Source: Phoronis australis (Eukaryota > Animalia > Phoronida). From it: a stretch of DNA of 64,000 bases. The notes under the pieces were generated by a model. The model did no database searches, was not told the origin of the DNA, and worked only from the letters and a program-made list of their open reading frames with translations. Positions 1 to 46,624 of the stretch are shown here, in pieces. Both the position numbers and the translations under genes were made by a program. The stretch covers positions 544,648-608,647 of the forward strand of contig NMRA01000065.1 of NCBI GenBank assembly GCA_002633005.1, read 5' to 3'. Within the stretch, counting starts at the first letter, position 1. The number at the start of each line of letters is the position of its first letter.

Positions 1-1125
1 TACTTTGAGCAATGATCTTCTCGAAGATTTTGGACAGGGTGTTAAGTAAATTTGAAATTTAAGTTTCGGAGTCTTTTTGTGTATAGGGACCATAATTCCA
101 TGTTTCCCAGAAGATGGATATGTACATAGCTGAAGAAGTTTGTTAAACAAATTGGTTAAGGGCATGGTAATTTCATTGGCAATCATTTTGATCATCTTAC
201 TGGTTATTAAAGCTGTGCCATCATTCTTTAAGTTATTGGGGTCAATTTAATTGAGATACTTCCGGACATCATTTTGATTAGCCGGGATGTCAGACAGTTG
301 ATTGAGACAACGTTCACGAAGAAAGGAAATGTTACCTACTTCAATTGGTGTAATGTGGCTTTTATTCGTGAAAAATTTGAGAAACAGGTCACACTTGTCA
401 CTACTACTTGAGGCTAGGTTATCATTATGTTTGATGACAGGATAAAAAGATTGTTGTTGACTGCCGCGTATTTTATTGATGGTGTTCCAGTATTCTTTGG
501 AGTTCTTGCTTGCGCTGTTAATCAGTCATCTCATAGACTAGAATGGGTGCAATAAACAGATCGCCTTCTGGACAATGTGGTCAGTGGTGTGTTGGGAGAG
601 GGCATAAAAATCAATCAAAGACAGTGAACTGAAACAACAAGGAGTAAAGAAGCCCATTTAAATGTCATAAGAGACATGCCTGAAAACAGGACTAAAGGTC
701 GTCGCTGGTATATCCGTGGAGGAAAATCCGAAGGTTTCCCACTGTCATTCCTACCAGGTCTTTTACTACAGCAACAATATTCCCATCTCCAAGATGACTG
801 CGAAGAGTCGGATACAAAGACTGCAAACAACGTCATCAGTATCCCTAGAAAGAGGTAATCTCGTGATGATTACGGTACCACAGACAGATGTATAGGTGAT
901 CTTGATGGGGACACTTCGGCAACGACAGCTATAAGCACTATCAGCGTAAAACATATCATATACTGTGCGAAATGAGAAAGAGCAGCAGATTCATCATGTC
1001 TAACACTATAACCATCCTTGAAATGCGCAAAGACGTTATCTGAGCCATGCCCGGACACCACGCCTTCACTGGGTGTGACTACAACTCGATCGCCCTTTAT
1101 TAAAGGCCGATAGGAATAGGTATAG
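1..1125 (-). mobile_element. Degenerate, internally deleted CR1/L2-group LINE related to the copy at 50666-55607 (continues off the left edge)
   Basis: Minus strand 1-520 translates to SKNSKEYWNTINKIRG...DKCDLFLKFFTNKSH...PIHKK...LLNTLSKIFEKII, matching SKNSKEYWDIVNKIRG...DKSILFLDYFTAKSH...PIHKK...LLNTLSKILEKII of ORF 53165-55396. Around 1070-1120 the minus strand (cctattcctatcggcc-tttaataaa) resembles the 5' end of the full copy (tctactcctaccggcc...ttaataaa). The 520-1125 boundary is less certain. Confidence 0.75.
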
Positions 1126-1860: not shown

Positions 1861-2475
1861 TTAAAAATGTGAAATACCATGTCCTTTGAATTCAAACCCC
1901 ATCTGCTTGTACAGTCGCTGTGAACCGTCGTAGTGGGCAAAAGTCGATAGACGGATGCCCGAAAATCCCTTCCACTGGGCATAGCTGAGAGCTGCCGTCA
2001 TTAAGTTTCGCGCAATTCCTCGCCTCCGAAACTGTTTTGAAACGCCGAGACATGAAAGTGTTACCCATTTCGGCATATTCTTCCTTTCTTTCAAAACCAC
2101 GTGGCCCACCACACTTTCCCTGCTCAGCGCTATCCAGCATGTCGTGCTGTCGGGTTTTAACGCCTCCAGTAGATCGTTCTGCTTTCGGTATGTGTGACGT
2201 AAACTGAGAAGTAGAGCACGTGTAAAAACACAACATCCAAACCCAAGCGTAACGAAAGTTCCACGTGTCCATCCAAGCTGAAGAACGGCGATTAGGAGGA
2301 CTGAGATCACGTATAACCAAGTTACGGAGTGTTTCCACGTGGCTCTGAGAAAGAGGTTCAAGTAAACTTCTTTCAGCTGATCTCTGTATAGCCTACATAC
2401 AGCTTCCACGTCCTTTTGACTTTTCGAAGGACGAATCACAATTTTGCAAAGGGAGCTCTTTTCACTTTTAGTCAT
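1861..2475 (-). CDS. NAT8/camello-like GNAT N-acetyltransferase, single coding exon
   Basis: First ATG at 2475 (MTKSEK..). Has N-terminal VIRP, an internal hydrophobic hairpin (WLYVISVLLIAVLQLGW..FVTLGFGCCVF) typical of NAT8, the acetyl-CoA motif V-x3-FRRRGIARNLM, and LST...QRLYKQMGF. The frame continues 20 codons past the TAA at 1861-1863, to 1798. Confidence 0.85.
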   Translation of the reverse strand: MTKSEKSSLCKIVIRPSKSQKDVEAVCRLYRDQLKEVYLNLFLRATWKHSVTWLYVISVLLIAVLQLGWTRGTFVTLGFGCCVFTRALLLSLRHTYRKQNDLLEALKPDSTTCWIALSRESVVGHVVLKERKNMPKWVTLSCLGVSKQFRRRGIARNLMTAALSYAQWKGFSGIRLSTFAHYDGSQRLYKQMGFEFKGHGISHF

Positions 2476-2857
2476 GGCTAAAAACGAAATCAAATGTGTC
2501 AGTTCGACGGCAAAACGCAAGTGAGGCTTTACGTGTGCTAGGGGCTGTCATAAATGTGTTCAGAAATGATCAATGAACGTAGTACCCCATTCACAAACAA
2601 ACATGCTTCCGGCCAACAATGTATTAAAAACACCACACGATTTTTTATCCTACTGGTCGGAAAGCAGTCAGCTACGAGTCAGAACGAGCTTGCGGCTGGT
2701 CGTTATTAGCACCGAACAGTAGACCTAGACACTGAGTAGACCACATTACTGACTGCAGTACCAACATCAGTGCTTACTTCTGATGTCTTGGTCACATACC
2801 GAGAGATGCTCGCCCGATATCGCACAGTGAATTCTACCCCAAAGAATTACATAATTC

Positions 2858-17908: not shown

Positions 17909-18107
17909 ATGAGCGACCGCGAGTCAGAGTCACTCGTCAACGTTTGTGAATCGGATAGGGTGCAGTCAGATAGACTCTTGGGGGACGATTATGGATCAAC
18001 CCGCAACAGTCACGGTGAAGGAGACATCGCCCAGGGCTGTACCAAAGTCTACACCCGACGTTGGTATATACTGTTGGTGTTTTCTCTGATGGCGTTAGCA
18101 CAGGGAG
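17909..18107 (+). CDS. SLC49A4: SLC49A4 exon 1
   Basis: ATG at 17909; KVYTRRWYILLVFSLMALAQG; donor G|GTATGG, phase 1. Confidence 0.9.
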
Positions 18108-21100
18108 GTATGGAAACAAAGTCAGTTGGTGTCATGCAGAGTAGACCCGGTGTGCAACCTATACGGGCCTGAACATTAACCTGGCCATCTAGATTGAAAA
18201 TTGAGCTCTGCAGGCTAAACACGTGCTAGTATCCTCTGGCTGGCTATACACTGCCTGCGACATACACAGGCCATGTATAATTGCATAAGAAGCCAAGGCT
18301 AGCCTGATGCCTACCAGTAGGGCCCACTATAGAAATTTTTTTTGTATGTTTTTGTCTTGAGTTCCATGGTCGTAATTGGGTTGAAAACGATCGATATAAA
18401 TGAGTCAAATTTCGATCTGTCCGGAGATTGAAATTATTTTCTATCATGGCAATTAATTATAGGTTTGGAATATAGTTCGTGTTACTATGTTTTAGGAAAA
18501 AAGAAAATATTTCAATCTAAAAACCCAAGACATCGAAGCATTGCTCAGATAATTTCCTGCAAGTATCAAACTGACAATTCAATTGACATATTTCGTGTTG
18601 TTTGAGTGACTACATTGGTCAAACCAAACAGACCTGTGACAGCTGTAGATTTTGAACCCATGCCTCTCCAAAAAATGGCTCCTTATGACCTTATACCAAT
18701 GCTTTAGGCAAGTACCTTAGGCAGCTCAGCCTTGTTACCTTACTCACATTGATACTTGAAAATTTATTACAGCAATATGGAACACATGGGGTCCACTCAC
18801 ACGGTCCGCTGAAGTGGTTTTTGGCTGGCATGACTCGGACATTGCACTGTTGTCGAACTGGGGACCTATAACTTATGTAGTGTCTATGGCAGGCTTTTCA
18901 TGGCTCATGGATGTTAAAGGCAAGGCTTCATATTTCAACTAATCTTTAATTAACCAAAGTAATTTGGCTTCAACCTCTTTTGAAGTGTGTACTACCGATG
19001 AGCACTGGCCGAAGCTTAGAACAGACATTACGTCAGACATTTTATTTGAGAAGACTTATGAACTTAAGGTCATAATTAAATAAAGTGATTAACTTGTACC
19101 AGTCTTCAATCTATCATCGCACCGAAAGCTATTTAGCGCTGGTCGGCAACAACCTGCACATATCCAATCACAACAACCTGCACACATCCAATCACAACAA
19201 CCTGCACACATCCAATCACAACAGCCTGCACACATCCAATCACAACAACCTGCACACACCCAATCACAACAGCCTGCACACACCCAATCACAACAGCCTG
19301 CACACACCCAATCGCAACAGCCTGCACACACCCAATCGCAACAGCCTGCACACACCCAATCACAGGAAAAACGTGACACTGTGCATTTAAACAAATATCT
19401 ACACAAAACTACATTTTAATTCAGTAAAAACACATTTATTTATTAGTATATATTTTCTTATAGCATAATACATGTAGAATTTTGGTTTAAAACCAATTTG
19501 CCATCAATTGGGTCACGTTGCCATGTCTTTTTGCTAAAATTTAGAAAAAATATGTACATTCATAGCAAAACAACAGCATCAATTACATCTATTCACCAAA
19601 TTTCAAATGTTCACGAGGCAATCTAAAAATGCTTTAGTTATGCATATGACTATATCTATCCATTTATTATTGGATATTAGTATTGTGAAAATCTAGTGCC
19701 ATGTACAAGTGTACATAGTTTGAAAATATAATAACAGATTGTTGACTATCATATTTGCCTGCATGAATTGAACAGGCTTCGAACATGAATTTTACTTTAT
19801 CATTATTAGTATCACTATAATTAAAATCCTGATAATGATAATATGATAGTAATAAATAATAATGGATCATGATAATGCTAATATTTTGGAACTATGAAAT
19901 AATGGTAGTAGTAATAGTAATGTATACTGATAGTAATACAACTTATATGGCCAACAGTTTGCATGCAGACCAGACTTAAAATGTTTGTAGTAATGTAATT
20001 TATTGTGGTTGGCATGTTAGGATGCAATGTTGCAATGAGATTTTGCCAGAAAATGGCTTATACTAGTTGTGACCACTGAACATGATACTACATGCGTTAA
20101 ATCTCTTTCCAGGTCTGAGAATATCGAGTATCATCTGTTGCGGCCTCGTATTTGTAGGAGCTGGGCTGAGGTGTATAACATTCGAGCAACCCGCTGCCAG
20201 TTGGTAAAAAGGATTTTCTTAACATGTTATAGTTCCTGTATTTAGTCCAATTTTTACCCTAATGGTAAAACAGCCAGTGACCAAGTCTCGTTTTTTTTTT
20301 TCAAAAATGCTTTCAGCGAGTACACGACACAGCTAACATATTCTCATCACACTATGATACTGAAGCTCCATGTTCTAATATTGGATGCTGAGAGTTATTT
20401 GCAGTAAACAGGTCTAGTTGTATCACCAGACGCACTGATTGCACCTGTAGTCTTTGAAAGGGTACTTAACTCAACTGAACAGATCTTGGCCACCGTTGAT
20501 CTTGTAATAGTTAGTGTACATGAATAGCTGCACAAGGATGATAAAAACTGTGATCATCCTCAAAACTTTCTCACAAATGCCCTCAAGAAATCTGTCAAAT
20601 TGCCAGTCTTCAAGGGTTTCTTAGGTTCAAAAATTACACATTTCTTTCAATTGTTAAGAAATTTTGTCACCTTGGGACGAAAATAAACTAAGTTTGGCAG
20701 TGTGTTTATAACGCCTGGTCCACATTGCATTGGAGTCGTTCATAGTCGCAGGTTAAACCAGTCATTGTGTAGTGAAATGCAAGTATAGTATATTACAGTG
20801 TGCCTGAGTTCATTTGCATTTGACGTGTGTACTTGGCCCGATGTGTGTGTACTTGGCCCGATGTTTCTTCTTCCTTTTGATTTCCTCGTCTGTTCATCAT
20901 GTTCTCATGTACTCACTTGCTTGATTTACGCTTTAATGGATTTATGGTTCTGTATCATGTAGTTAGTCAGATCTGGCTAAGCTACGTAATATCATGACAA
21001 AATTCAACGCACCGTGTTTTAGCCAATCAGAGGACAGTCGTATATTTGAACATTTTGGCATGATGTGGACAAGGCTTTGTTTGTGTTAACGTTCCGTTAC

Positions 21101-24100
21101 TTCTTGTATAGGCTCATACATTCCGGGCAAATGCTTAATGGATTCGCAGGCCCTGTAGTCATGGCGGCAGTACCACTCCTGTCTTCAAGCTGGTTTCCAT
21201 CGTCCCAGCGCACTACGGCTACAGCACTTTCTGCCATGGCAAGCAATGCGGGGGTAGCTGCTTCATTTGTAATTGGTACTTAATGTTTTCTCTTTGCATG
21301 TTATGCAGGTTGTGGGTATTGATTTTCTCATGGACGTGATATCTTCTGAGAAATTACCCTCCGCACTCAAAAAACCTTAATCAGGATTAAAAAAACATGT
21401 TCGAAAGGCAATAGATCCAATAGTTTACTTTCTCCATTTTTGAAATTAAATATTAGGTTTTATGGGTTTCTTGGTGTTGTGGAGAAAATTAATTCGTGCA
21501 TCAATTTCTCGGCATCTACTGACTGTCTTAGCTGGTTGTCTTGTGGTACGTCTTCATTACTGCTCCGCTGTTTCCGTGATAAAATATATACACGTACCCA
21601 TAGACGTCTATGCACGTACCATTTACTTCGTAAAGCCAGCAATAGTGTTCGTTATTTTATTGAGGTGCTGTCAGATTTTTTCCGCATGCGATACTTTCAG
21701 ACAGAAAAATCATGGCATTTTCCTTTAACATCGTGCATCAGAAGCAATGCTAAGCAACTATTTAAATGCTTCTCATAACTGAGTTGCATTTTTTCTGCTT
21801 TCCTCTTCATAAATTGTCTCTTTGGTGAGACGTTTTTGAGAAGACTCACGAAATGTCCATTTCGATGACACGTGATTTGGCAGTTCTTAGTGAGCCGACT
21901 CGTTGAAGAGGTCGTCTCCCCACCTGGTAACTGATACATATACTGCATGGACAGGCTTTCAAATTTTTCATTATTGGTCATTTCAGGGACACAATTTATG
22001 CATTGCACTCCTGAGTAAAGTTTTATCAAGAATTGTGACCTTAACAAATATACAGCGTTCAGATTTCTATTTTTATGACAAGGCAGATGTGATGTCTAGT
22101 CAGAAGGCAGATTAGCAGCTTAAGGGGTTTCACACAGTTTTGATATACTGTTGAATTGTTGATTAATTTTGATCCATTGTATTTTGGTCTTTGCCTACTG
22201 CAAATCTGCACTGAATTAGTTTTTCCATTATTGCTGCATGAGAATTAGGCACCGCAGACAAAAGTGTGAAAATCACATGGGTTGCAAAAAATCCTCCTCT
22301 TAATTAAATTGATGATTGAAATCTTTTTGAAAACAAGACTTTTATTGCGCAATACCAATTTTATGTTCTGTCGGTTTTAATTATCTGCCATGGTAAATTC
22401 AGGAAAAGTTACAGTGTGAAGATTGAAATGGATAGCAATTTCTTGTTTTGTTTGGATTACTATCAAGATCACCTTCAATTTGTTCCTTCTCAATAATTGA
22501 TGTATGTTTGACTACATCTTGAGAGGAATTCTTACTTTTTCAATGAGCTAATTCATACTGGTCACATATTAAATTGCTTCGGAGGACCTTTATGGTTTGC
22601 TGTCTTAACAATTTTGTCGTCTTGGTGTTTTCGTCATCTGAATGTATGGCTACAAGGGCACTCATTACCATTGCTAATGACTTGGGCCAGTTATCGTCTT
22701 CAGCTATTGACTTCCATGTTGGAGCGCTCACTCAATTATTTTAAGCTGTTCTTATGTGTGACTGAAGGATCCTAGGTAATCTGGGCAAGCCTCGAGCTGT
22801 TTGCACGAACCACTGAATCATCTGCTCAAACGGCACCATAGACTTCATATAAAATTTATATTCATTATTGTATAAGTAAACAAATTTAACTGCATTCGAT
22901 CAGCTAGCCCCATCTTTGCAGTATTGCTTTCTGTTGACAGTGATTATGCATGTGCAAACATAGATGTACACTCTTGCTCAAATATTTTGTAAAATGTGCA
23001 CCATGTCGAACCACTAATGTCGCACTGACATGTAGGACATTTTGACGTATGCATCTGAAATGTTATGCTCACGCACTTAAGTTCCCTGCACGTGTTAAGG
23101 TTGCTACTATATGTCATGGCAATTTTGAGACACATTTGAAGAAACGCTCCTATTTGCTTATTACAGCAGTCATACGAACAAGTAAAGCTGTTGTAAACCA
23201 CCTTGTCAAATACTAACTTTGATTAAGTGGGTTTGACACATTTTTAATTTGCCGTTGGATTTTCACATTTTGTATTTTGATCTTTGCTTACAACAAATCT
23301 AAAAATAATGTGGACATCTGCTGCAGATGCCTAAATAGAGACACCTCAACCAAAAAGTGTCAAAAGTTTGTCTTAAATGTATTATCTTGATTACCATGTG
23401 TTTTCTACAAATTAAAAAATGAGGCAGTAACTGTCCTAGTCTGTGCAGCATTTTAGTTTACACATTGTCACAAAAGATGATGATTGCCCCGCTGCATTTC
23501 ACTAGATGGCAACTGTGTGATGTTGGTGGGATTGTGAAGCAAATTTTGTTGACGTAAATAAACTAAAATAGAAAGTTTCTTAGACTCAGGTTTCTCATCT
23601 TACCTCAAATTATGTCACATAATGTGTACACCTGTGTTTAGAATGACATCATTGTGAAACTTGATGTTACACGCCAATATTGAGTAACAAAAGCTTAACA
23701 ATTTCTGTTTTAAATAGAAAACAATATTCAGATATTGTACAAATCAGTCAGTCGTAAAACGACTAATTTGTGGCACTGTACCAATTCCACAAAGGCTGGT
23801 GATACTTGTAATACTTTTCCCCAACTTTTCCTCGCTTATACATGTATTAAAAGGGATTTCTGTGCTTGGGAACGACTGACAGTTTTCGAAGTGTGATACT
23901 TCATTCAATGATTTGACTTGACTTGTCTGACCATTTATGCGCCAAGCACTGTCTGGCAACTGTGAGACCATGTGCAGTACGTTGGCATGATCCGGCCATT
24001 TTATGCACAATCATTGCCTTAAACAATGAAGAGATTTTGCGTCTTCCCAAACCTACATATAACTTCGAATATTAGTTGACGGCAAGTTTAGACTAATTTT

Positions 24101-27100
24101 AAAAGAGGCTAAAATCAAAAAGTAATTTTTTAACGGAAAGTGGGTTCGTAGTAGCTTTAATGTGAATAGTTTCTCATTTAATTGATTCTGAACAGTTTAG
24201 TAATGGGACACAAACCTGGTTTCCTCCGAATGTGTATACCGGCCCTTGTCTCGACATGAAAGCACCACCTTTAGCTTAGTGCTAGAAGTACACTTCTGCT
24301 CTACCTCTACTATTTGACGCACCTGCTGCCACCATTCGAAACTTTGTGGATATTTTCATAGCCTCAACTTTTCCCTCGCAGGTGTTTGTTCTGTGCACAT
24401 GTGCAAACTTCAGTCATACGGCCAAGCACTATCCATGTTGAAAGTCACATGACTTGGCTATATGCCTCAAAGCCACACATACACTATGCGTTCACCACTG
24501 GAGCATCTGGGTGTTTTCTTAGCCTCAAATTATCCCTCACATACGTTTTATGTCTGCACATTTCCAAACTTCAGTCATAAAAGAAATGAGATAATCATCA
24601 GGTCAATCATGTTACTCTCAAAATGGAGAATGTCGTCTAATGTGTCTGTGCCTGATTTATTTATTTATTGTGATACTTAAAATGCGGGTGGTCTTTTTAG
24701 TGACAGCACTGCTTTCCAAGAGGGCCCTCAACAACAAAATATAAAACAATAATATAATACAATAAAGAAGTAAAACAATGTAATAAAGATACAATTAAAA
24801 CAGGTTGAGAATTAAGATAATAAATAAATGACGAAGGATGGTGAAAATTGGATTAAGAGAGGTAAAATAAATAAAGAGATGATACTAAATAGTTTGAGTA
24901 TTTATAACAATGAAAAATGACATAATTAAGACAGGTAGGGTGTAAAAATGGTTAGGTAAATTACAGCCACTTTTTAATATTAAGTTTGAAAGTATTAATT
25001 CAATTGGGCCGTTTAATTTCTGGGCTATGAGCAGTATAGATAAAAAAGTTCTTGCCGGTCTTGGTTTTAACTTTTTTAAAAGAAACATTACCAGCAATGG
25101 AAGAACTTGTAGAGTATATAGCTTGACTGCTACTGAATTTTCAAACCAAACTTAAAGGAAGTACGTCAGGAGGCAAACTGTATAAGGATTAACAAAGATG
25201 TCTACTGCGACTTTTGAAACCAGCTAGGCTGAAGATATTGGTTTTTATCCATCTCAAAACCTGATCTTTGGAAGTTGGCATTTGTGCAGATATCAAATAC
25301 CTTGGGAAAATTTGGATCTACGAAAATTCTCGGATGCTCCCAGGGAAAATTTTAGGCTATCAAATTATCGAATGATATTACCACCTGTACCTTACAGAGT
25401 TATCTCCTTTCCAGGCTTATTCATGTCGGCCATATCTTGAACGGCCTTGCAGGACCCGTCTCTATGGCCGGTTGCCCACTGCTGTCAACCCTATGGTTCC
25501 CCCCCAATCAACGCACTACTGCTACTTCTGTGTCCGCCGTCTTTAACTATGTTGGCATGGCCTTATCCTTTATACTAGGTAACTAAAGCTTGCATTGCTT
25601 GTTGTTGGATCATCTGACAGCATTCTGCCACCATTTGTTTCTTCTCGGGCAATTCTCTTGAAATGAGCACAATCGTTTGTGTTCAGTGCATTGCCTTTTA
25701 ATTTTGGAACCCAAATCTGCTCTTTGAGAATATTCTGTCATTTTGAGTCTCAATCTGTGCAAACGTATTTTACAATATGTTTACATGTTATGTGCAATAT
25801 GAAATATAAACAATTATCAGTGCTGTAAAGTTTTGTCCATATATTCTTCTGAATGTTTCCTTATTGTCACGCAAACAAACCAGCAAAGGCAAGACCCGAA
25901 TGTCTTTATGATCTGTTTATGTAACTGCGTAATTCCCCATCAGTCGTTTGTGTGGCAAACATTCTTGCCATTTTTAATAAGTGAAGTTTAACTCTATTTG
26001 AATTTTAGAGTGTTGGTTGATCTTCTTAGCCTACTATCAAACAATTGAATACCTAAATGACAGCATTAATTAATGTTAGTTTTGTGGCTATCTTTTAGAT
26101 TAGATAACTATAAGCAACGCTTTTGTTAACAGTGTTTCAATGAAAGTGTTAATGGTGTTTGAAGATTTTGCATTAGAAGCCGTTCCATTTTAGGCCCACT
26201 TATGGTGCGTGAACCACCAGACTCCTCCAATTCCACCAACGCATCGATTGTTCTTGTTGGTAAGTTTCTCAAAGCAACATCCTTTCCTCTGCTTAACTTC
26301 ATGTCAGGCGAATGCAACGTGAATAGTCAATTGTTATCTTGCGCTTTGTGTACGTGTGTAAAAGCGCAAGACTCGTGTGGGACATTTGGATACCTCGGGT
26401 TCTTGCCACAAACACGCTATTTATTTTTCATGCAGAAAATATTCTTTCCTGGATTTACTTTAGAATTCAGTGTCACTTTTTATCGGTCGCTGCTGACTTT
26501 ATCAAGCTTCTGTCACACTTGTTGGCATGTGTCGATGTTGAGTCAAGTAACACCAAACTGTACAATACCCCGTTCCACTTGTGTGATAGGTTGACTGGAC
26601 TGTCGGTCCATGGATGTTTGATAATTTCAAAAACACTGTCTCTTTTAGTGTACGCCATGTTGAAACCATCTTCCCCTTTGCTAGAATCGGGTCAAAAGTA
26701 TGACCTAATTCCTCACAGTGGATTAACACAGTGGTGTCATCAACATGAACAAATTTTGTTTAATATAATATCCAAAATGAAATCTCAAAATCCCCGCTTC
26801 TATAGTTTTCTAAATTATCTCTTCATTCTCATTTCTTGCAACTTTCTGATTTTTTTGTGAAAATCAGTAAGTCTAAGTTAGTCCAGCGTACGTGAACATA
26901 TTTGAAAAAAAAATTCCAAACATCATTTTAGAGAGCAGTGCATCAAACATTCTGGGATATTCATTGGATTCTGAACGTGTTCACTTATCTCTGAGATATG
27001 GTGTTCCCAAGTTGATATTCATTGGATTCTGAATGTGTTCACTTATCTCTGAGATATGATGTTCCCAAGTTGATATTCATTGGATTCTGAATGTGTTCAC

Positions 27101-30100
27101 TTATCTCTGAGATATGATGTTCCCAAGTTGATATTCATTGGATTGTGAATGTGTTCACTTATCTCTGAGATATGATGTTCCCAAGTTGATATTCATTGGA
27201 TTCTGAATGTGTTCACTTATCTCTGAGATATGATGTTCCCAAGTTGATATTCATTGGATTCTGAATGTGTTCACTTATCTCTGAGATATGATGTTCCCAA
27301 GTTGAGTCCTACTTAACCTCAAAAGACATGTGATGTGAAAGTTTCCTGAACACTGTTCGTAGCAAGATCCTTCGTATCCAGTATAAATAAATACAGTATA
27401 CAGATTGGAAAGACGTGGATAAAAACTGGCACAATATCATCTGACCCAAAATTAAGGTCATTGAAAACTACTGCAACATTGTTCGTTCTTATGTAAAGCA
27501 AACGGGTTATGGGTGCTAAAAATCACTGTTCTACTGAATCATCTGGTAAATTTGTGGAGCAGGATGAAAATGCGTTGGCTTTCAGTGCCATGGTAAAGAG
27601 TGTCACCTATGGGCCAAATTCTTTTTTCGTCAATTCTGCAATCAACAGTTCTTCTTCCACAAGGTTGCATACTACAACTTTCTATATTCATTTAGGGCTC
27701 TAATCTCTCTAATTAGTTTTTGATGTTTTCTGCTCTGTTCATGTACAAATTCAAGGCTAAGTCCCAATGAATGTATGTCTGATTATATTATAGTTTGCGC
27801 ACATACTAGTTCGAGGTTGCTCCGATGACCCCTAGATATGAACTATGCATGTACAAATGCGACTACTTCTAGTTTGGATGGGAACTTCTAGCTTTAATGC
27901 TGGGGTTCTCAAAATGCAAGCCAGGATTAGTCAGTCATCCGCGTAATTCGTAATGCAGGTGTACTCGACTACTGATCAATTGACACGTCATGAGTTCGTA
28001 CTAAACTAATCGTAGAACTCAAACTCTGAATTATTTTCAATTCTAGAGTTCTAAGGTTAGTGTCCACATGTACAGAGCCATGTGAAAAACATTAATTTCA
28101 AATTGCGGGTATTGATAATTGATGCTTCACGTATGTGACATCATGAATAACCGGAGTAACCTCTGTAGCGTTTTTTGTCGTTTTTTCATACAGTTGTACT
28201 TAGGTGCCACCATAGTACGTCACTTTACACAATAATTGTTTTTGCAAACTTCATCAGTCATCTGTTGCTGTCAAAAAAGTGTATAGCAGATACGGACACA
28301 CAAGAAAGGCATGGGGGAGGGGGGGGGATATCAAGTGTCATTGCATTCCATGTGCTTTGGAGACATCCTCGCCTCTTTTAATGTATTTTTGTACATTTAT
28401 ACATCTTAACATTTTATTAACTGCTGCTTCTTGTTGATTGCGTTTTACAGATTTGAACAAAAACGCATCATTAGAAGATATGAAGAACGATATTCGTATA
28501 CTTATGTATGTTGGTAAGTAGGTGTCTATGGGCCACATTGTGCCATACCTGAATATTTGCTATAAGTGTGGCTGCATTGTCAGAAGGGTCTAAAACGCCA
28601 GCTCTATCAACAGCATTATCAGGGTATACCAAAAACTTACCTGTCGATGTATTATTGAAAGTGAATTTTAACTTTATATGCGAGAATATACCAAACAAGT
28701 TTGTTTCATAAACAACCCAATGGTAGATGGATGCGTGTGAATATGTGTTCAATTTCATGTCTTTGGATGGCTATTATGCAATGCATTCTGGGTTCAATGC
28801 AGAATGACCTGAATAGCCTCTTGTCATAGCACACCGTTGATCAGTTGCTGACGAGGTCGCTTTTTACTACTGATAATTCATTGGGCAGGCAACGTCCATG
28901 TGATAGATAAAGATCAGTAGTGATACCTGTGTGTTGTCGCTTCATGTGTGTTATAAAACATACTCTGAGTACATGTTATTGCAATGGTAAACAGTGCAAA
29001 GTCAGAGAAAATTGATAAATGTAACATTTCATTGTAATTGGTAATTGTTTTTGATGAGGCTGTACGCAGGAAAAGAAGGGATTGTTTTGTCTATATGCCC
29101 TCAACTGGTGGAGGTCACCACAAAATCGTCAGGTGCAGTAATTGGCAAGGGCGGGGAGGGCATTTTTTCAGTGAAGGGGACAAGCACAAACCTGAAATAA
29201 GTGTCCACTGGGGGACTTTTTGCAATGGACAAAGGCGCCTTTTTATCCCCCCATAGTCACACCAGTGCGCAGATGTAATTATCCTAGACTTCACAATTCT
29301 GTGTTATAGCCCGATATCCAACATGTAATGTTCAGGATGCCAGTACAATTGGCTTTGTCTTTGTTGCTCGTTTCAGAGGCTGGTTATGCAGCGGTGTTGT
29401 TTTTAATCATGTTGATATATTTTCCCGCCAAACCACCAATGCCCCCTAGTGTATCAGCTCACAAGGAGAGGGTAAATTTCAAAGAAGGATTATTAGGCCT
29501 ATTTAAGTAAGTCACTACACTTATTTTTTTCCTTCTCCAGTAGTGTTGACAGTGATTCCTGTGACTTTAATGGTTATTAAGATACGCCTTTGCTTTCTGT
29601 CATCAAACTTGACAAATATGGCATGCTCATCCTTTTTCATAATAGGTGCTATTTGAAACTAGCAGGTCTATTTTAAGTTATTGAAACCAGTGGTTTTAAA
29701 GATTTACAATGCATGAACACAGCAGAAAATCCTTATTTTTACAGGAAGCTGAACTTTTGGATAGTCGCTATTCCGTATGGTATTTCATCAGGGGTGTACG
29801 GTGGGTGGGGCAGTGTCCTAGGGGTCAATTTAACCCCCTTGAAGGAAATTGATCAGGTATTATGTCAATGCAGTTGTATAAAATCTTTGACGAGTTGTTG
29901 CCATAGGTGAAAGGAGAGATTTGGCTCAAATCAATTATACAGCAATACTTTTTATCATGACTTGTTTTCAATAACAACATCACTTGCTAGGAAAATGCAG
30001 CCATCAAGTGAACAAGGCAAGGCTTAAAGTAACTGTGAACCTTATTTAACAGGTTGTACTTATGTGCAAATATCATGAACTCTGTTAGCTTTAACCAGTA

Positions 30101-33100
30101 CAAAGTAAATATTTTCTGAAAGGTGAATAAATTTCCAAACATAATATATTACTCTTTAGTTATTTACTTGTCTTTATTTTTTCACAAGGTATCGAAATGA
30201 TGGCTTAAGGGTTAAAACATGAACCGAAACTATGCTTTGTGTGCTGAGTGTAAAATGGCTTGGGTGCAGCTGGTTAAAAAACGTGCAGCTTTGTAGTCGT
30301 GTGAAGTGCTTGTCATTGCAGTTTGCAAACACTCTGCGCACCTGACGTGTATGATGAAACTGATGTGCGTGTACTTCCCTTGTAGACAGAGGCTGGCTGG
30401 ATAGGGTTCTACTCAACTATTGCTGGATGTGCGGCTGGCTTCATTGTAGCAAGGTAGCGCAGTTGATTTATTCTTGTGACTTAATGCCCTAGATATTTTA
30501 ACTGAAACATTATGAAATCTTAATGTGCGTTAAGGTGAGCATCGGCATTTAATAACGAAATATTTTAAAATTCGGGTTTTTACGGTAGCGACGGATTCCA
30601 GTTAAAGTCCACGACACTGCTGTTATGACATTTATTGCACATACAGAAGGCAGAAGTGACTTAGAATCAGTGAAGCCCAGGTAATACATTTTGTCAGCAA
30701 AGAAAATTTTGTTAGCCACAGGTCAGCAAAATGTCAGCTAGTTGGTGGGCGGTCACAATGGCTAGAGCATTTTCAAGGAAGTTCCAAGTTGTTAGACATG
30801 AACTTGAAGTGGAAACAATTCTGTGTTTGTTCCTATAAATTTCAGCTTCGATCCCCTAAACTTGGAACAGCAGACACCAAACACACAGTACAAATCCCGT
30901 GATCGCGCCCCTAATCTCCACACATTCATGGAGATACCTGGAGACCAAGCTTCACACTCACGCAGGGACCAAGTTCTTGTTCCAGATCATGTGGCGAAAC
31001 TGGAATGTAGAGGCGCGGTCATGAAATAGTTTTCACATTGAAAGTTTTTAGAAATTTCGGAGTCGGGTGTTTTTCAAAACGTTATCTGGGCCAAAAACGG
31101 AACATGATAATAACAACTAGTGTATAAGGAACCGTTGACAACTTCACCAGGCCTCTAGATGAGCTTGCTGTTGGTTATTGACCAATAGCATCACAAGCAG
31201 TAATGACACTTATATATGACTATTGCTAGTCTAGGAACTGTGATACATGTAAGCTATGTGAAGACTTCACATTCACAAGCAATCATGTGACTTCCTTTTA
31301 ACCAAATGCACACGTGCCTCTTCAGACATGCTTGGATTATGCTTAAAGTGCTCAAAACCACCATTTATCTTGTTTAAGCAATCCAGTACATTGTCAGCAT
31401 CATTAAACCTTCCTTTATAGCATTGCATGTCACAATCATGAATTCAATATCCAAAAACTGAGAAAATAGATGAAAAGCGACTTCAATGTGCCCAGCGCCG
31501 CTGTGTCGTGTCCACCAACACACGAGTTTCTTGTACAAACCTACCATATCTGCAATTCGCCGATGCCCACGGGGAAAGTGAAAAGAGCCACAGCATGGTC
31601 AAGTACTAAGTTGTTATAACCTCCTCAAACACAACGCTTTGCCATTCCTTATATCATAAACCACATGAAAACGAGCAGCAATATTTGACGACTTTTCACA
31701 CTAAACACAGTGGAGGATGACTAGGGCTGTGATTGGTAGTCCCCATTTTAGGTATCACAGTATTAATCAACCAGTAAATGCTCGTAACTTGACATCAGCT
31801 AATTGTCAGGTGGTGTTTTGGGTGTTCCAATTTGACAGTTAGTCAACTGGTGGGGTTGTTTTTGTGTTTTGATTATGGAATTGGTGATTTTAAACACTTT
31901 ATTCGATAGACATTGGATTGAGATTTTTGCTTTTAAGGATGGCCCGGTAAACTGTATTTCAGTACTCTGCCATCGGCACATTTGAAAAAGTTCAGTTGCC
32001 TTTTGCAGTCATTATGAGGTCCTCGCCTTTTGGTTAATACATACATTTTTTATATTTATCTCTGTGGAGGTTGTCTCGTCTGTTTGGCTATAATGCTTAT
32101 GCAACTATCATTGGTTAATAGGTCATGATACATTTGTCCGAAATCTCTATGTCCAGGTTAAGTCAGATTTTTTTCATTTTGTTCTGGTTTTTGTTCTTAA
32201 TAGTCTAACTTACAGCATAAATGCAGAAAATAGTCAATGATTCCGTAGCCAATTTTATTAACATAGAGATAATAATCGAGTGAACTTGATACATGCATGT
32301 TATTGTATTGAACTATGCCAGCTCCAAATTACATCAATACTTGGTGTTATCCAAATAAAACCAGATGTCTGCAACAATGTTGTCATTTGTGCCTTTAAAT
32401 TGCATCATAACGACAAGCCGTGGTCGTCAGTTTATCAGGATTTGAGTTTTTAAGAATACTCTGTACTTGTCTACTTTCTTTCCAGGATTGCTGACTGTTT
32501 TGCTGGGCACATTAAGTTATTTCTCCTTGGTTTGACCTTGATGGGCATTGGATCCACAGTCTGGCTGACAATTGTGATAGGGTCGTACATACCATTTTCT
32601 ACTGGTATGTTTGCCAATGAATGACAAGACAATGTAAGGGCAGTGTTGGATCTGTGGGGTCCACAGAATTCCCCCTCTCCGTAAATGACCACTGTGGCAT
32701 ATTTTTTCTGTGCAATAAAGAACACTGAAAGATTTATATCTTTTTGCTTGATTGGTCTCGACTGCAAACTGTGAATTATTGAAAGAGGTCGAAAAGGGCT
32801 TATGTCATCAGTGTTATTTGCTCTACTATTGCTCGCAGGGGAGATTATGAGGAATTAAAAAGTGTGGATGAAATCGTGGACGCGCCTCTGAAGTATTTTT
32901 AAAAGACATAAGTTATGGAATCGTTGATCATGGTTGTTTTTGTCCGTTATCGCTATGAGTTTTCAAAGTCACGTGATTGCTCAAGCAACAAATGAGCATC
33001 CCTTTTAAGAATATCTGACATCACACTAAGGTGCATTAGTGGAGCTAATTACAGAACGATAGCACAGTTTTAAATAGTTTAACAATTTGTCAATGTTTAT

Positions 33101-34811
33101 GATATTGTTTTAATTTTCATTTTTCAGCTCAACTATATGCCTCGTGCATAATAACGGGTTTTGTCCTGAACGCTACAATTCCATTGTTTTACGAGATGAG
33201 CTGCGAGACCAGTTTCCCCATTGCCGAAGGTGTCACTAGTGGTCTACTCACTTTCCTCAACAACGTGGTTGCTCTGATTTTCTTGTTAATCTTCATGATT
33301 CCATCACTACGTAAGGGTAAAATAGGATACCTTTTAAAGTGGCACTCGCTGAAACTTGGACTGTTTAACTGAAATTTATTCTACAAAAAGTTACTTGCAT
33401 TGTCCAAAATGCAAAAAACATTATCAGGAAATTTGAAATAGATGCAGTCGTACAACTTCATTAAACACATCGCCATTTGGTGGTGTGACATCACAAAAGG
33501 TAAATAAATGCATCGCAAGAGGGCGTGATTGTCAGGTAGTGTCTCTGTGCCTGAGATAATATATTTGAGACATGACAATGATTTATCACGAAAAACTAAG
33601 TGAGTAAGGATTGTGAAGATAAACGCTGCACTCGACTTTTTTCTACTTGAATCTTACAGCTTTCATCCAACATGACATTATACTATATGTTTATTTTGAC
33701 AATATGAGAATTCAGTGTATTGAGAATAACACCCAAACCACACAAAAAGATCTGAGTTTATTTTTAAACAAAGAGTAAAATAGCTGCAAATAATGATATT
33801 TTAGAATGTAATTCAACATATGAGCAAATCTCACGCTAGAAAATTGACTTTCTTGACACGACATTTCCTCATTTTGCGTGAAATTGTCGGACAAGTTTAC
33901 TTTTAAAGCTGCACTAAGCACGTTTTCTGTAAACAGGTAAATTTTGATCTAGGTTGGTCACCATTATAAAACTGGGATCTGTAAGACTTAACTTGAAGAA
34001 AGAAATATGTTTTACGCTTCCACTTCAGGATTGTTGAAGAAAGTTTAGCCAAATAATTGTGAGCAGATCACATTCTAGAAATAATTCGTAGAAATCATAT
34101 CAGCTTTGAACTAGAAGTTAGTGTACATTCTCACAAACTTTGCGCCTTTGCTCTTTGTGAGATTTAATTATTTTTCAGAAATAGTTGTGCGGAGCATAAG
34201 ACTAACTTTCTGTGTTAATTCTTACGTCACTTTTCACGAAACAGACCCTGTACTTTGTTTTTTGAATTGATTTGGTGGTACAACATATTTAATTGCCCAC
34301 ATTTTCAAAAGAATGTACCCTAGATGAGCAAAAGGTAACAAGTGACTGGTTGCACTCGTGGCTATCATTGTTCCTGCATGTGATTCGGTGCTGGTGTGTA
34401 TGATTTTATGTTCGTATGTATGGTTTTTGTGGCTCCTGTGCATAATTTTTGTTCACATGCGTGACTTTTGGGTTCGTATGCAGGATTCATAAGTTCAGGT
34501 GGTTCGTGCGTAAGATGTGATGCTCGTGCGTATGATTCTATGGTACCTGTATACTGAAACTTTCACATGAATCCGATGGGCCATTTCTGAGAAATGATGT
34601 TCTGAAGTTAGTCTATTTGTTTTTTTTTCTAGGAAACTACGTAAATTTTTAAACGGAATTCACTCTTCTTCTTTCAGCCACTATGTGGATGAACTGGTTC
34701 CTGGTGGGCTGTGTTATATTCTGTTTCATGGTGCTACTTTTCCTCAAAGAAAACTATGGTAGACTACAAATTGACGTGGAAAAATTCACAGTCATGGTTC
34801 ATGATCATTGA
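17909..34811 (+). CDS. SLC49A4: SLC49A4/DIRC2-like MFS transporter; join(17909-18107,18773-18919,20113-20203,[21112-21275 or 25415-25578],26194-26259,28451-28513,29377-29506,29745-29856,30386-30453,32486-32604,33128-33310,34678-34811), 491 aa
   Basis: Exons join in frame (1476 nt including stop). DIRC2 motifs: VYTRRWYILLVFSL, WNTWGP, DIALL.NWGPI, GLR, GQMLNG.AGP, WF...R.TATA, GPL.V, YFP.KPP.PPS.SA, AGWIGF, LYASCI, PLFYE..CE.SFPIAEG.T, W.NW...G, E.Y.RL..D. Confidence 0.92.
18773..18919 (+). CDS. SLC49A4: SLC49A4 exon 2 (GC donor)
   Basis: Acceptor tacag|; AIWNTWGPLTRSAEVVFGWHDSDIALLSNWGPITY..WLMDVK; donor AAG|GCAAGG. Confidence 0.88.
19147..19363. repeat. 24-bp minisatellite x9 in SLC49A4 intron 2
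   Basis: Unit caaca(a/g)cctgcacaca(t/c)ccaatc(a/g). Explains the spurious repetitive ORFs here. Confidence 0.97.
20113..20203 (+). CDS. SLC49A4: SLC49A4 exon 3
   Basis: ttccag|; GLRISSIICCGLVFVGAGLRCITFEQPAAS; TG|GTAAAA, phase 2. Confidence 0.9.
21112..21275 (+). CDS. SLC49A4: SLC49A4 exon 4a (mutually exclusive copy 1)
   Basis: gtatag|; WLIHSGQMLNGFAGPVVMAAVPLLSSSWFPSSQRTTATALSAMASNAGVAASFVI; G|GTACTT; 164 bp. Confidence 0.88.
24655..25250 (-). mobile_element. 3' end relic of a CR1/L2-type LINE in the intron between exons 4a and 4b
   Basis: Minus strand gggccctcttggaaagcagtg...caccc...aataaataaataaa tail, and a GKNFFIY-like RT C-terminal remnant near 25050. Confidence 0.45.
25415..25578 (+). 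CDS. SLC49A4: SLC49A4 exon 4b (mutually exclusive copy 2)
   Basis: tttccag|; WLIHVGHILNGLAGPVSMAGCPLLSTLWFPPNQRTTATSVSAVFNYVGMALSFIL; G|GTAACT; 164 bp, same phases as 4a. Confidence 0.88.
26194..26259 (+). CDS. SLC49A4: SLC49A4 exon 5
   Basis: ttttag|; GPLMVREPPDSSNSTNASIVLV (N-glycosylation sequons); G|GTAAGT. Confidence 0.85.
26956..27303. repeat. 58-bp minisatellite x6
   Basis: Unit gatattcattggattctgaatgtgttcacttatctctgagatatgatgttcccaagtt, near-identical copies. Confidence 0.97.
28451..28513 (+). CDS. SLC49A4: SLC49A4 exon 6
   Basis: ttttacag|; DLNKNASLEDMKNDIRILMYV; G|GTAAGT. Confidence 0.8.
29377..29506 (+). CDS. SLC49A4: SLC49A4 exon 7
   Basis: tttcag|; EAGYAAVLFLIMLIYFPAKPPMPPSVSAHKERVNFKEGLLGLF; AA|GTAAGT. 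Confidence 0.92.
29745..29856 (+). CDS. SLC49A4: SLC49A4 exon 8
   Basis: ttttacag|; KLNFWIVAIPYGISSGVYGGWGSVLGVNLTPLKEIDQ; CAG|GTATTA. Confidence 0.92.
30386..30453 (+). CDS. SLC49A4: SLC49A4 exon 9
   Basis: ccttgtag|; TEAGWIGFYSTIAGCAAGFIVA; AG|GTAGCG. Confidence 0.9.
32486..32604 (+). CDS. SLC49A4: SLC49A4 exon 10
   Basis: tttccag|; RIADCFAGHIKLFLLGLTLMGIGSTVWLTIVIGSYIPFST; G|GTATGT. Confidence 0.9.
33128..33310 (+). CDS. SLC49A4: SLC49A4 exon 11
   Basis: ttttcag|; AQLYASCIITGFVLNATIPLFYEMSCETSFPIAEGVTSGLLTFLNN..; donor at 33311, or an in-phase alternative at 33317. Confidence 0.9.
34678..34811 (+). CDS. SLC49A4: SLC49A4 exon 12 (terminal coding exon)
   Basis: ctttcag|; TMWMNWFLVGCVIFCFMVLLFLKENYGRLQIDVEKFTVMVHDH then TGA. 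AATAAA candidates near 35857 and 36044. Confidence 0.9.
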
Positions 34812-44310: not shown

Positions 44311-46560
44311 TTAAGAGGAAACGTTAGATACAAATCGATTGTCTCTGAACTTCATCAAAACAGCAACTCCAACAGCTGCCAAAAAAGAGAGACCCAAACA
44401 AGTTAAGCATACGTACAGTCCTATGCGAATCTCGAAGCAGTCATTTAAAACTGATTTGACACTGGCAAATGGAGTTTCTTGCGTTTCTTGCACCGTCCCT
44501 TTGACATTGCCAGCTTCACATTGAATTTGTCCGCCATTTTGTTTGCTAGCGCCGTTGGACAGAGAAAGGCGCAAAGATGCGACGGTCAACAACTGAGATT
44601 TGTCACGTGGTGGGTTAGCGATGGAGTTTCCCTGAGGTGATGATAACTTGACAGTTGGTGCGGGGTCCCCATGAGACGAACATGTAATTGTCAAGTCGTC
44701 ACCTTCAACAAAAAAGGTAACATTTGGTTCTGAGGGATTAGTGCAGGTAAGAGAAACGTTGAAGAAATCTCGATTTTTGTATTGCCGGGGTGTGCTACAA
44801 GCCGGTTTACTAATGTATCTAAAGCCTATGTTCCCATGATTTGCAGACAACCATGATTGGAACTTAAATAAATCACAGTTGCAGTGGAAAGGATTATTGA
44901 CGAGATCTAACGTCGAAATACTTGAGCCTGATTTCATTGCATCTTCAAGAAGTGATTTTGGCAATTTCTGCAATTGGTTATGGTTGATTAAAAGAGTGTT
45001 AAGGATATTTTGTCGGGGCAAAAAATTCTCCCCTATCTCACGCAGCTGGTTGTGGTTCAGTTCAAGATGGACCAATTCCGTGAGATCTCTGAAACTGTCT
45101 TCTTCAATCTCCTCGATTTTGTTAAAAGCGATATACAGAAAACCGGGGGACGACAGTCCTTTGAACATCATCGCATCTATTCGACCAAGATTGTTGTGAT
45201 CTATCAATAATTCTCTCAGTGAGCGTAGAAGTTCAAATGTGCCTTCTTCAATGATTTCTAATCTGTTGTAATTCACCGTCAATGATCGGAGATTTGACAG
45301 TCCAACAAACATTTTTCTTGACAGTCGAGTAATATTATTACGCTTAAAAGTAAGAAGTTCCATATCAGTATATGCCAGAAAATTGAAACAACCCTCTTCT
45401 ATTTGCATAAAGTTATTGTTTGACAAATCGAGCCCAACGGTAAATATGTTTTTCGTTATTTTAGCGGAAATAGTGTGGGTTGACTTTTTTAAATCTTTCA
45501 GCCTCACAACAAGTCTTGCAGCTACTTGGTTAACAATTCCCTTGTCGCCGATTGAGTGGAAACTAATTGTCAAGGACTCCGCTGATATTCTTGGAGTTTG
45601 AGTTAATGACCAAATTTCCAGCGCTACCTCTTTTAGACGTGTACAAGGGTCGAAGGCATCCTCTTCTATAACTGTTAATTCCGTTGCCATAACTGTTAAA
45701 ATCTCAAGATCCCCAAACTTAAGAAATTGACGGCCGTTGAATGTGGTTATGTTGTTGCCTCTTAGATCAAGACGTAGGAGGTTATGAAGCGAAGAGAAGG
45801 CATCGAACTCAATAATACTAATCTTGTTGTTGCCCAAATTGAGGACTCGCAGGGAACCTAACCCTTTAAGTGTCCAGGAGGTCAGGATTGTGAGCAGATT
45901 ATAAGACAGTTCTAAAGTTGTTAATGACTTGGTGGATGACCACTGACCATTAATGCGAGAAATCAAGTTGTTACCAAAATACAAGACGGTCAAGGAACCG
46001 AGTCCAGACAATAGTTGCTCTTCTATCGCGGTCAGGCGATTATACCTCAAGTTAAGTTCCGATAACAACGGCAAGTGGAGGAACGAAAACCCGTCTATGT
46101 GAGTAATGAGATTTTTACCAAGATCTAGGTGACGAAGATTGTGAAGATCTTTAAAATTCTGAGACTCAATTCTTTGTATTTTGTTGTCTTGCAGGGAAAG
46201 ATATTCTAGAGAACTTAAATTCCTGAAGGGTGATCCAATCAACTGGGCGATTAGATTCCGGTCGAAATTCATTGATTCTACCTTTGTAAGTCCGTCCAGG
46301 ATACCTTCATCCAGAGTCGTTATTTTGTTCGTTTGAAGCCTTAGAAATCGAATCAAGCTCGATCCATTAAAACGGAAAGCGTCTTCACCGATACTGCCAA
46401 TTCCACAGTAACCAAAGTTAACGTCGTCCCCTGGAAGACTTCGAACAACATCCTTGGTAAGAATGGAAATTTTCGCATCTAGTCCAAGTATACAGGTTCT
46501 GAATGGCACCCCCTGGTGAATTGTTACCAGAAACACCAGCAGCACGTTCAGTATAAGCAT
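44311..46560 (-). CDS. Single-exon LRR + Ig + TM type I membrane protein (749 aa)
   Basis: Signal peptide MLILNVLLVFLVTIHQG; ~19-20 LxxLxLxxN repeats in two blocks; LRR-CT NPFHCNCDL..W..C.TP..C; Ig domain (EGDDLTITCSSHGDPAPTV...GQIQCEAGNVKG); TM IGLYVCLTCLGLSFLAAVGVAVLM; 13-aa tail. Confidence 0.92.
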   Translation of the reverse strand: MLILNVLLVFLVTIHQGVPFRTCILGLDAKISILTKDVVRSLPGDDVNFGYCGIGSIGEDAFRFNGSSLIRFLRLQTNKITTLDEGILDGLTKVESMNFDRNLIAQLIGSPFRNLSSLEYLSLQDNKIQRIESQNFKDLHNLRHLDLGKNLITHIDGFSFLHLPLLSELNLRYNRLTAIEEQLLSGLGSLTVLYFGNNLISRINGQWSSTKSLTTLELSYNLLTILTSWTLKGLGSLRVLNLGNNKISIIEFDAFSSLHNLLRLDLRGNNITTFNGRQFLKFGDLEILTVMATELTVIEEDAFDPCTRLKEVALEIWSLTQTPRISAESLTISFHSIGDKGIVNQVAARLVVRLKDLKKSTHTISAKITKNIFTVGLDLSNNNFMQIEEGCFNFLAYTDMELLTFKRNNITRLSRKMFVGLSNLRSLTVNYNRLEIIEEGTFELLRSLRELLIDHNNLGRIDAMMFKGLSSPGFLYIAFNKIEEIEEDSFRDLTELVHLELNHNQLREIGENFLPRQNILNTLLINHNQLQKLPKSLLEDAMKSGSSISTLDLVNNPFHCNCDLFKFQSWLSANHGNIGFRYISKPACSTPRQYKNRDFFNVSLTCTNPSEPNVTFFVEGDDLTITCSSHGDPAPTVKLSSPQGNSIANPPRDKSQLLTVASLRLSLSNGASKQNGGQIQCEAGNVKGTVQETQETPFASVKSVLNDCFEIRIGLYVCLTCLGLSFLAAVGVAVLMKFRDNRFVSNVSS

Positions 46561-46624
46561 TGTAAACTTTAAAGCGAGTCTTCTTTATGTACTCTCTTAC
46601 GACTGTTTGAAACTTGTTTGTACG

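Follow-up and report, generated by a model that had tools for sequence, protein, structure and literature searches.

Tandem copies of exon 4 in an SLC49A4/DIRC2-family transporter gene of Phoronis australis, two of them spliced, probably supply alternative fourth and fifth membrane helices

Introduction

Tandem duplicated exon substitutions, also called homologous mutually exclusive exons, have been described in vertebrates, fly and nematode (PMC9741552, PMC7954323). Here we report an array of this kind in a 64,000-nt stretch of DNA from Phoronis australis (the window; assembly GCA_002633005.1, contig NMRA01000065.1, positions 544,648 to 608,647), in which a gene of the SLC49A4/DIRC2 family of major facilitator superfamily (MFS) transporters holds two intact copies of its exon 4 (4a and 4b) and a decayed third one. 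The array belongs to a known kind, that of tandem-duplicated mutually exclusive exons in transporters, and the swap is already visible in RefSeq isoforms. It shares with the described cases homologous exons of equal length, conservative substitutions, the enrichment of membrane and transport proteins and a frequent convergence in orthologues (PMC9741552, PMC7954323), whereas the main texts of those two studies do not include SLC49A4/DIRC2 (DIRC2 and FLVCR each occur zero times in the former, SLC and MFS zero times in the latter).

In the MRP1/mrp-1 clusters (Yue et al., 2017, as cited in PMC7434440 and PMC6071210), a transporter exon of equal length has likewise been duplicated independently in several phyla, including molluscs and annelids. 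MRP1 is an ATP-binding cassette (ABC) transporter with reported competing docking/selector RNA pairings, whereas the pairings found in the window gene are no better than those of shuffled sequence. Exons 6a and 6e of coq-2 are likewise homologous exclusive exons that remodel the core of a membrane protein, in helminths, annelids and molluscs, and are described as lacking in mammals (PMC7434440). For coq-2, a substrate switch has been demonstrated and two invariant residues mark one exon type across phyla (PMC7434440), whereas no cross-phylum exon type is seen for the SLC49A4 array, which is known from sequence and RNA.

Human SLC49A4/DIRC2 belongs to the same family as the window gene (PMC9719028; bioRxiv 10.64898/2026.07.31.742071), and PMC9719028 makes no mention of splicing. 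The cargo of SLC49A4 is unsettled, with pyridoxine in human cells and a link to heme in zebrafish; H+-coupled export of pyridoxine is a mark of the subfamily. No solved SLC49A4 structure was present in the PDB copy searched; the closest solved fold is that of FLVCR1 and FLVCR2 (SLC49A1/2; PMC11168923, PMC10557757), with a TM-score of 0.72–0.79 depending on the query. Identity is about 22–25%, and most of the choline-site residues are not kept. A first-pass annotation of the window, made from the sequence alone, knew of no description of the exon-4 swap for SLC49A4. This still stands for the literature searched, where we found no published description (subscription journals lay mostly outside the scope of the search, and supplementary exon catalogues were not covered). 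The same segment is swapped in molluscan SLC49A4 RefSeq isoforms X1–X3, but these are unremarked database models, whereas in the window gene two copies are seen spliced and one has decayed.

The array adds an MFS carrier to the transporters with convergent exon duplication, and its decayed copy beside two live ones shows alternative exons being born and dying. Isoform pairs that occur naturally, in the window gene and at least six molluscs, and are alike except in the fourth and fifth transmembrane helices (TM4–TM5) offer clean controls for the contribution of this hairpin; if the hairpin is a specificity module, they would serve as existing chimeras with which to map its role in an MFS cavity. 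In addition, family annotations need correction, because in Owenia, Tegillarca, Batillaria and Littorina predictors merge copies into spurious proteins with extra helices.

The gene and its tandem exon-4 array

We consider it probable that the exon-4 array, with two intact copies both spliced to exon 5 and one decayed copy, gives rise to two transporters of 493 residues each, alike outside the TM4–TM5 hairpin and with modest differences expected in substrate affinity, range or gating. The gene is modelled with 12 exons on the forward strand from 17909 to 34811 (Table 1), with a single frame that stays open with either 4a or 4b, and zero N gaps fall within it. Exons 6–12 were modelled from sequence, the RNA comparison described below having covered 19900–26900 only; exons 7–12 align to the family, and a loose end of RNA reads at 26259 corresponds to exon 6. 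Intron 2 is a GC-AG intron (donor at 18919–18921), and the loose end seen in RNA run X3 supports the join of exons 2 and 3. Intronic tandem repeats lie inside the gene at 26956–27305 (58-nt unit, about six copies) and at 19147–19364 (an array of a shorter unit).

Table 1. Features of the SLC49A4-like gene and of the rest of the window (positions within the window).
Feature	Position	Strand	Basis or remark
Exon 1 (coding part, start codon to start of TM1)	17909..18107	+	Gene model from sequence; aligns with family N-terminus
Exon 2, GC donor	18773..18919	+	Gene model; 10-read loose end at 20111 (RNA run X3) matches the exon 2 end
Exon 3, constitutive, donor phase 2	20113..20203	+	RNA joints from 20203
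Exon 4a, intact TM4–TM5 copy	21112..21275	+	RNA joints on both sides; synonymous single-nucleotide polymorphism (SNP) at 21178
Decayed third exon-4 copy (pseudo-exon)	22547..22709	+	tblastn, nhmmer; no RNA joint listed
Exon 4b, intact TM4–TM5 copy	25415..25578	+	RNA joint to exon 5; synonymous SNP at 25520
Exon 5, constitutive; takes 4a, 4b or, when skipping, exon 3	26194..26259	+	RNA joints
Exons 6–12	28451-28513, 29377-29506, 29745-29856, 30386-30453, 32486-32604, 33128-33316, 34678-34811 (stop included)	+	AG/GT sites, one open 493-codon frame
Fragment related to the RVT_1 frame, at window start	1-525	-	Domain search
228-codon open frame, GNAT acetyltransferase domain	1864-2547	-	Domain search
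Intronless 757-codon membrane protein with leucine-rich repeats and immunoglobulin domain, very short tail	44314-46584	-	Domain search
Non-LTR (long terminal repeat) retrotransposon reverse transcriptase frame (RVT_1)	53009-55393	+	Domain search
Overlapping frames, weak RNase H-like and integrase SAM-like matches, beside N gap	57666-58306	-	Domain search

A profile of 4a and 4b retrieved 1325 proteins at E<=0.001, and a profile of the window exons with five homologues led to proteins named SLC49A4 homolog or DIRC2, to which the window protein is 40–50% identical over about 450 residues (maximum 50%). In a tree of 97 rows built without the exon-4 segment, the gene has sequences of annelids, nemerteans and molluscs as neighbours but lies apart from the main clade of molluscs, with no starred placement. 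The same tree, which has no FLVCR row, puts it in the spiralian part of the SLC49A4/DIRC2 family with an SH-aLRT value of 92, likewise unstarred. Sequence comparison thus supports its assignment as an MFS transporter gene whose nearest relatives are SLC49A4/DIRC2 rather than FLVCR. The 12-helix MFS fold was checked on a 50%-identical Owenia homologue (P0156) standing in for the window protein: its predicted fold (pLDDT 90.5) is that of an MFS transporter with FLVCR1/2 as best match, and the exon-4 segment forms its fourth and fifth membrane helices. The segment also maps gaplessly onto residues 202–255 of FLVCR1, i.e. TM4 and TM5, and Pfam MFS_1 matches both 4a and 4b below the gathering cut-off. 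That exon 4 covers TM4–TM5, as first proposed, is borne out by this mapping. In FLVCR structures, the inward cavity is formed by TM4 and TM5, which also contribute to the substrate site (PMC11168923).

As initially read, the two intact exons are each 164 nt long, flanked by AG and GT, free of stops and open in the same frame (entry phase 2, exit phase 1). They are identical at 97 of 164 nucleotides and encode the same residue in 32 of 54 whole codons; the earlier count of 33/55 had included a split codon. Twenty-one of the 32 residue-identical codons differ in nucleotide sequence, and the differences at codon positions 1, 2 and 3 number 18, 10 and 39 of 54 (39/67 whole-codon differences at third positions). 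The proportion of synonymous differences (pS) is 0.81, which is saturated, the proportion of nonsynonymous differences (pN) is only 0.27 and most differences fall at third positions, all of which supports an old tandem exon duplication with both copies under purifying selection, again in line with the first-pass annotation. All 15 conserved family columns are kept in 4a and 14 of 15 in 4b, and their family-profile scores lie at the 25th and 55th percentiles, respectively, among 128 family rows. Among the differences listed, each exon has a single SNP, and both are synonymous.

The earlier statement that no other exon is duplicated also holds within the window, where tblastn with the other 11 exons returned self-hits only (E<0.1). 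An assembly artefact, with haplotypes or paralogues merged, has a precedent of sorts in the Cordylochernes database model P0008, which shows an identical duplicated stretch of this kind. Here, such an origin is barely credible: 41% of bases differ between 4a and 4b, their synonymous sites are saturated, the remaining exons have a single copy each in the window, the gene is gap-free and RNA joins both copies to the same exon 5.

Where two copies had been counted, there are three: a further full-length copy between 4a and 4b had been overlooked (tblastn E 2e-5, nhmmer E 2.6e-6). Its best tblastn matches score 30.4/29.3 bits, against a maximum of 23.9/21.6 in shuffled introns (184 and 198 of 200 shuffles gave any match). 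This copy has lost its acceptor and donor, carries a 1-nt frameshift near 22626, keeps 7 of the 15 conserved family columns (8 lost) and scores below all 128 family rows; it is identical to 4a at 86/159 nucleotides and to 4b at 75/159. Since its pN against 4a is still below pS (0.30 vs 0.70 and 0.39 vs 0.88 in the two halves), it likely served long as an exon before it decayed, and the array was once three-membered.

Splicing and the choice of one copy

Three raw-read RNA runs (X1, X2 and X3) with the same species label, all from one study, were used, 18–19% of each being read; reads were placed on 19900–26900 and, in a second placement, on 25150–26150, and a joint was listed when 3 reads from 2 starts supported it in a run. 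A Logan-contig set (X4) covered repeats only. The joint between exons 3 and 4a was carried by 0, 7 and 6 reads in runs X1, X2 and X3 (13 in total), that between 4a and exon 5 by 4, 0 and 2 (6 in total) and that between 4b and exon 5 by 3, 3 and 7 (13 in total). In the second placement, the 4b donor is fully spliced, with zero depth immediately behind it. Both intact copies are thus used as exons of one gene, the acceptor of 4a and both donors being seen in use, and no joint of the third copy was listed in the three runs. Of the four junctions predicted earlier, 20203–21112, 21275–26194 and 25578–26194 appeared in RNA and 20203–25415 was not listed in any run. The joint of 4a to 4b (21275–25415), predicted to be absent, was indeed not listed, which at this low depth means under 3 reads per run and does not establish its absence.

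As first claimed, including both or neither copy shifts the frame: the skip-both message reaches a stop at codon 152, 728 nt ahead of the last junction, and the include-both message at codon 209, 885 nt ahead of it. Nonsense-mediated decay is a recognised route to exclusivity for exons whose length is not divisible by three (PMC6071210). Productive messages would hold exactly one copy because messages with none or both shift frame and would be removed by nonsense-mediated decay. We propose that the frame rule and nonsense-mediated decay would suffice for two live copies; the skip-both joints seen suggest that exon choice is not tight, and such reads would represent leaky choice cleaned up afterwards. 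With the 3–4b and 4a–4b joints both below the listing threshold, we infer the path from exon 3 through 4b to exon 5, as well as strict exclusivity, the latter from the frameshift.

Steric exclusion between 4a and 4b is ruled out by the 4139-nt spacer that separates them. The complementary docking/selector sequences that the first-pass annotation had suggested looking for did not emerge from the 300-nt flanks scanned: under three models, 18, 5 and 14 of 25 shuffles gave duplexes as good as, or better than, the best shared ones. A repeat finder gave no arm pair tied to all copies among the 25 of 47 pairs listed.

Several observations weigh against two functionally distinct isoforms, those from the RNA being given here and those from homologues and residues below. 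RNA depth was 10x at best, and the skip-both joints of exon 3 to exon 5 (0, 3 and 2 reads in X1, X2 and X3, 5 in total, with intervening content marked as not known) nearly equal the 6 reads of the 4a–5 joint. The 3–4b joint was below threshold in all three runs, and no loose end at the 4b acceptor reached 3 reads in any run. Upstream of this acceptor, an intronic depth of about 3.5x (X2) and 4x (X3) runs on, with reads extending at least 265 nt into the intron in run X3 (25150–25414). In addition, outer junctions exceed inner ones (22 starts vs about 7, p about 0.008, the inner 4b count being estimated). The unlisted joint, the upstream reads and the excess of outer junctions would all fit a situation in which only 4a is productive now and 4b, found mainly in partly spliced, 4a–4b or intron-initiated RNA, is starting to decay. 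We regard this as improbable, given that 4b retains nearly all conserved columns, also in the half that precedes its first Met, and a family score above that of 4a, that splicing at its donor is complete and its listed SNP synonymous, that a few reads start at its acceptor (about 2 in X1 and 1 in X3 by depth arithmetic, with no splice partner assigned) and that an intronic depth of 1–3x is common throughout the gene in these libraries. The upstream reads may reflect slow upstream splicing or an intronic start.

The same segment in homologues

Twenty clusters were examined for isoforms by comparing chosen near-full-length members, fragments being left out. In five of them, covering six mollusc species, same-locus RefSeq isoforms have every difference inside the exon-4 segment (20/20, 21/21, 30/30, 16/16, 27/27, 27/27, 21/21, 32/32 and 26/26). 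Three forms each are found in Gigantopelta aegis, Crassostrea angulata and Saccostrea cucullata, and two each in Patella vulgata, Ostrea edulis and, as listed, Magallana gigas. The remaining 15 of 20 clusters were free of the swap, annotation being weak evidence of absence: Nematostella, Branchiostoma, Ptychodera (2), Amphiura, Tubulanus, Dreissena, Mytilus (2), Pecten, Pomacea, Biomphalaria, an ENA pair, mammals (one form among 15 of 50 members listed) and Littorina (a partial extra copy only). In Owenia and Tegillarca, the gene model joins two diverged full copies into one; in Batillaria and Littorina, it joins partial ones. Exon boundaries in homologues were inferred from proteins, and this too counts among the points against two distinct isoforms. 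A cryptic in-phase GT lies 81 nt into each window copy (21192 and 25495), after a conserved Trp codon. Splicing there would give an 81-nt half exon that preserves the frame, a likely source of the half-copies in the Batillaria model.

A word-index search with exon 4b alone gave no match among 23 candidates, and a search with the Owenia two-copy region gave no further two-copy model (6 matches among 340 candidates, the 4 new ones single-copy). Six of ten first-list proteins with two apparent stretches held only one real copy, and the models P0008 (Cordylochernes, identical repeat) and P0017 (partial repeat) were set aside as likely assembly or prediction artefacts.

In a weak exon-only tree (54 columns, 50 rows), the two Owenia copies pair (98/81), as do those of Tegillarca (98/89), and the Gigantopelta copies group together (92/86); oyster types persist across three genera and limpet types across two Patella species. 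The paralogue clade that holds the two-copy Owenia gene (99) is not that of the oyster and limpet genes. Monophyly of the window copies was neither recovered nor rejected (approximately unbiased (AU) test, p 0.13 and 0.19). A clade uniting 4b across phyla with Owenia copy 1 and the X1 isoform types of oysters and limpets, a group chosen post hoc from the tree, was rejected (p 0.0004), and one of 4a, the decayed copy and the oyster isoform X3 types was not (p 0.20). As copies mostly group by lineage, repeated duplication of exon 4 explains the pattern most simply; a single ancient array that underwent turnover or gene conversion may also account for it. Judging from these homologues, exon 4 would have been duplicated, diverged and lost repeatedly in spiralians, and an array would give within one gene the variety that other lineages get from tandem whole-gene copies. 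By analogy with coq-2, the TM4–TM5 exon of SLC49A4 might have been duplicated independently several times across worms and molluscs as a plug-in specificity module, switching cargo or proton coupling by exon choice in one lysosomal transporter gene; we put this wider proposal forward tentatively and consider it rather doubtful.

Residues and putative function

It had been suggested that the differences between 4a and 4b concentrate at cavity positions. This was not upheld: with the cavity face guessed from helical periodicity, differences fall at 5 of 17 face positions and at 22 of all 54 (Fisher p=0.37), and this lack of enrichment belongs with the points against distinct isoforms. So do the correlation of isoform differences with family column variability (Spearman 0.73, seven isoform pairs) and the divergence of TM5 in 13 whole-gene paralogue pairs, which at 0.25 shows no excess over the other helices (0.19–0.35). 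The first two results favour an alternative in which both copies are real mutually exclusive exons and functionally interchangeable, kept for splicing signals split by tissue or stage, with differences that are drift at tolerant positions; the frequent birth and loss of copies, seen in the decayed third copy and the patchy presence in homologues, would agree with it. We nevertheless judge interchangeable copies unlikely, because the oyster types, 16–32 residues apart, are conserved across three genera and because 4a and 4b differ at polar mid-helix sites (Q/H 207, S/N 245 and N/Y 246 in FLVCR1 numbering, beside V/C 221). The polar mid-helix changes, together with the long retention of distinct oyster types, tip the balance towards some tuning of transport by exon choice.

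A stronger functional claim was that 4a is a DIRC2-like pyridoxine carrier and 4b an FLVCR-like carrier of choline or ethanolamine through an Asn at the site of FLVCR1 N245, where 4a and chimpanzee DIRC2 have Ser and 4b has Asn. The FLVCR1 site comprises W125, Y153, Q214, N245, Y349 and Q471; Q214A cut ethanolamine uptake by 94%, and N245A had one of the lesser effects on uptake (PMC10557757), a further point against a functional difference. Of these six residues, 4a keeps one and 4b two, the other four being absent in both. Gly occupies the Gln214 site in both copies and in 115/128 family rows, and Tyr153 and Tyr349 align to Gly outside exon 4 (alignment read by eye). Within the DIRC2 family itself, Asn is the commonest residue in the 245 column (N 43, S 30, G 20, C 13 and A 10 of 128 rows), which at 2.58 bits is hypervariable, among the more variable of the segment. 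The Ser/Asn argument is thus not supported, and we consider such a division of cargo very improbable. For two isoforms that differ modestly, the most likely cargo class would be that of human DIRC2, small cationic metabolites such as pyridoxine, and not the choline of FLVCR1.

Other observations

The SLC49A4/DIRC2 subfamily is marked by a lysosomal dileucine signal at the N-terminus. Near its own N-terminus, the window protein has E5-x-x-x-L9-V10 and L23-L24, neither an exact fit to the acidic dileucine consensus. Outside the gene, we take the overlapping frames at 57666–58306 to be a likely fragment of a DIRS-type tyrosine-recombinase retroelement. Among homologues, the Ptychodera flava RefSeq isoform pairs P0204/P0290 and P0224/P0291 differ outside the exon-4 segment, with 17 differences in residues 298–330 and 23 in 400–501, respectively, possibly reflecting another exon swap, or splicing between the genes of a tandem SLC49A4 cluster.

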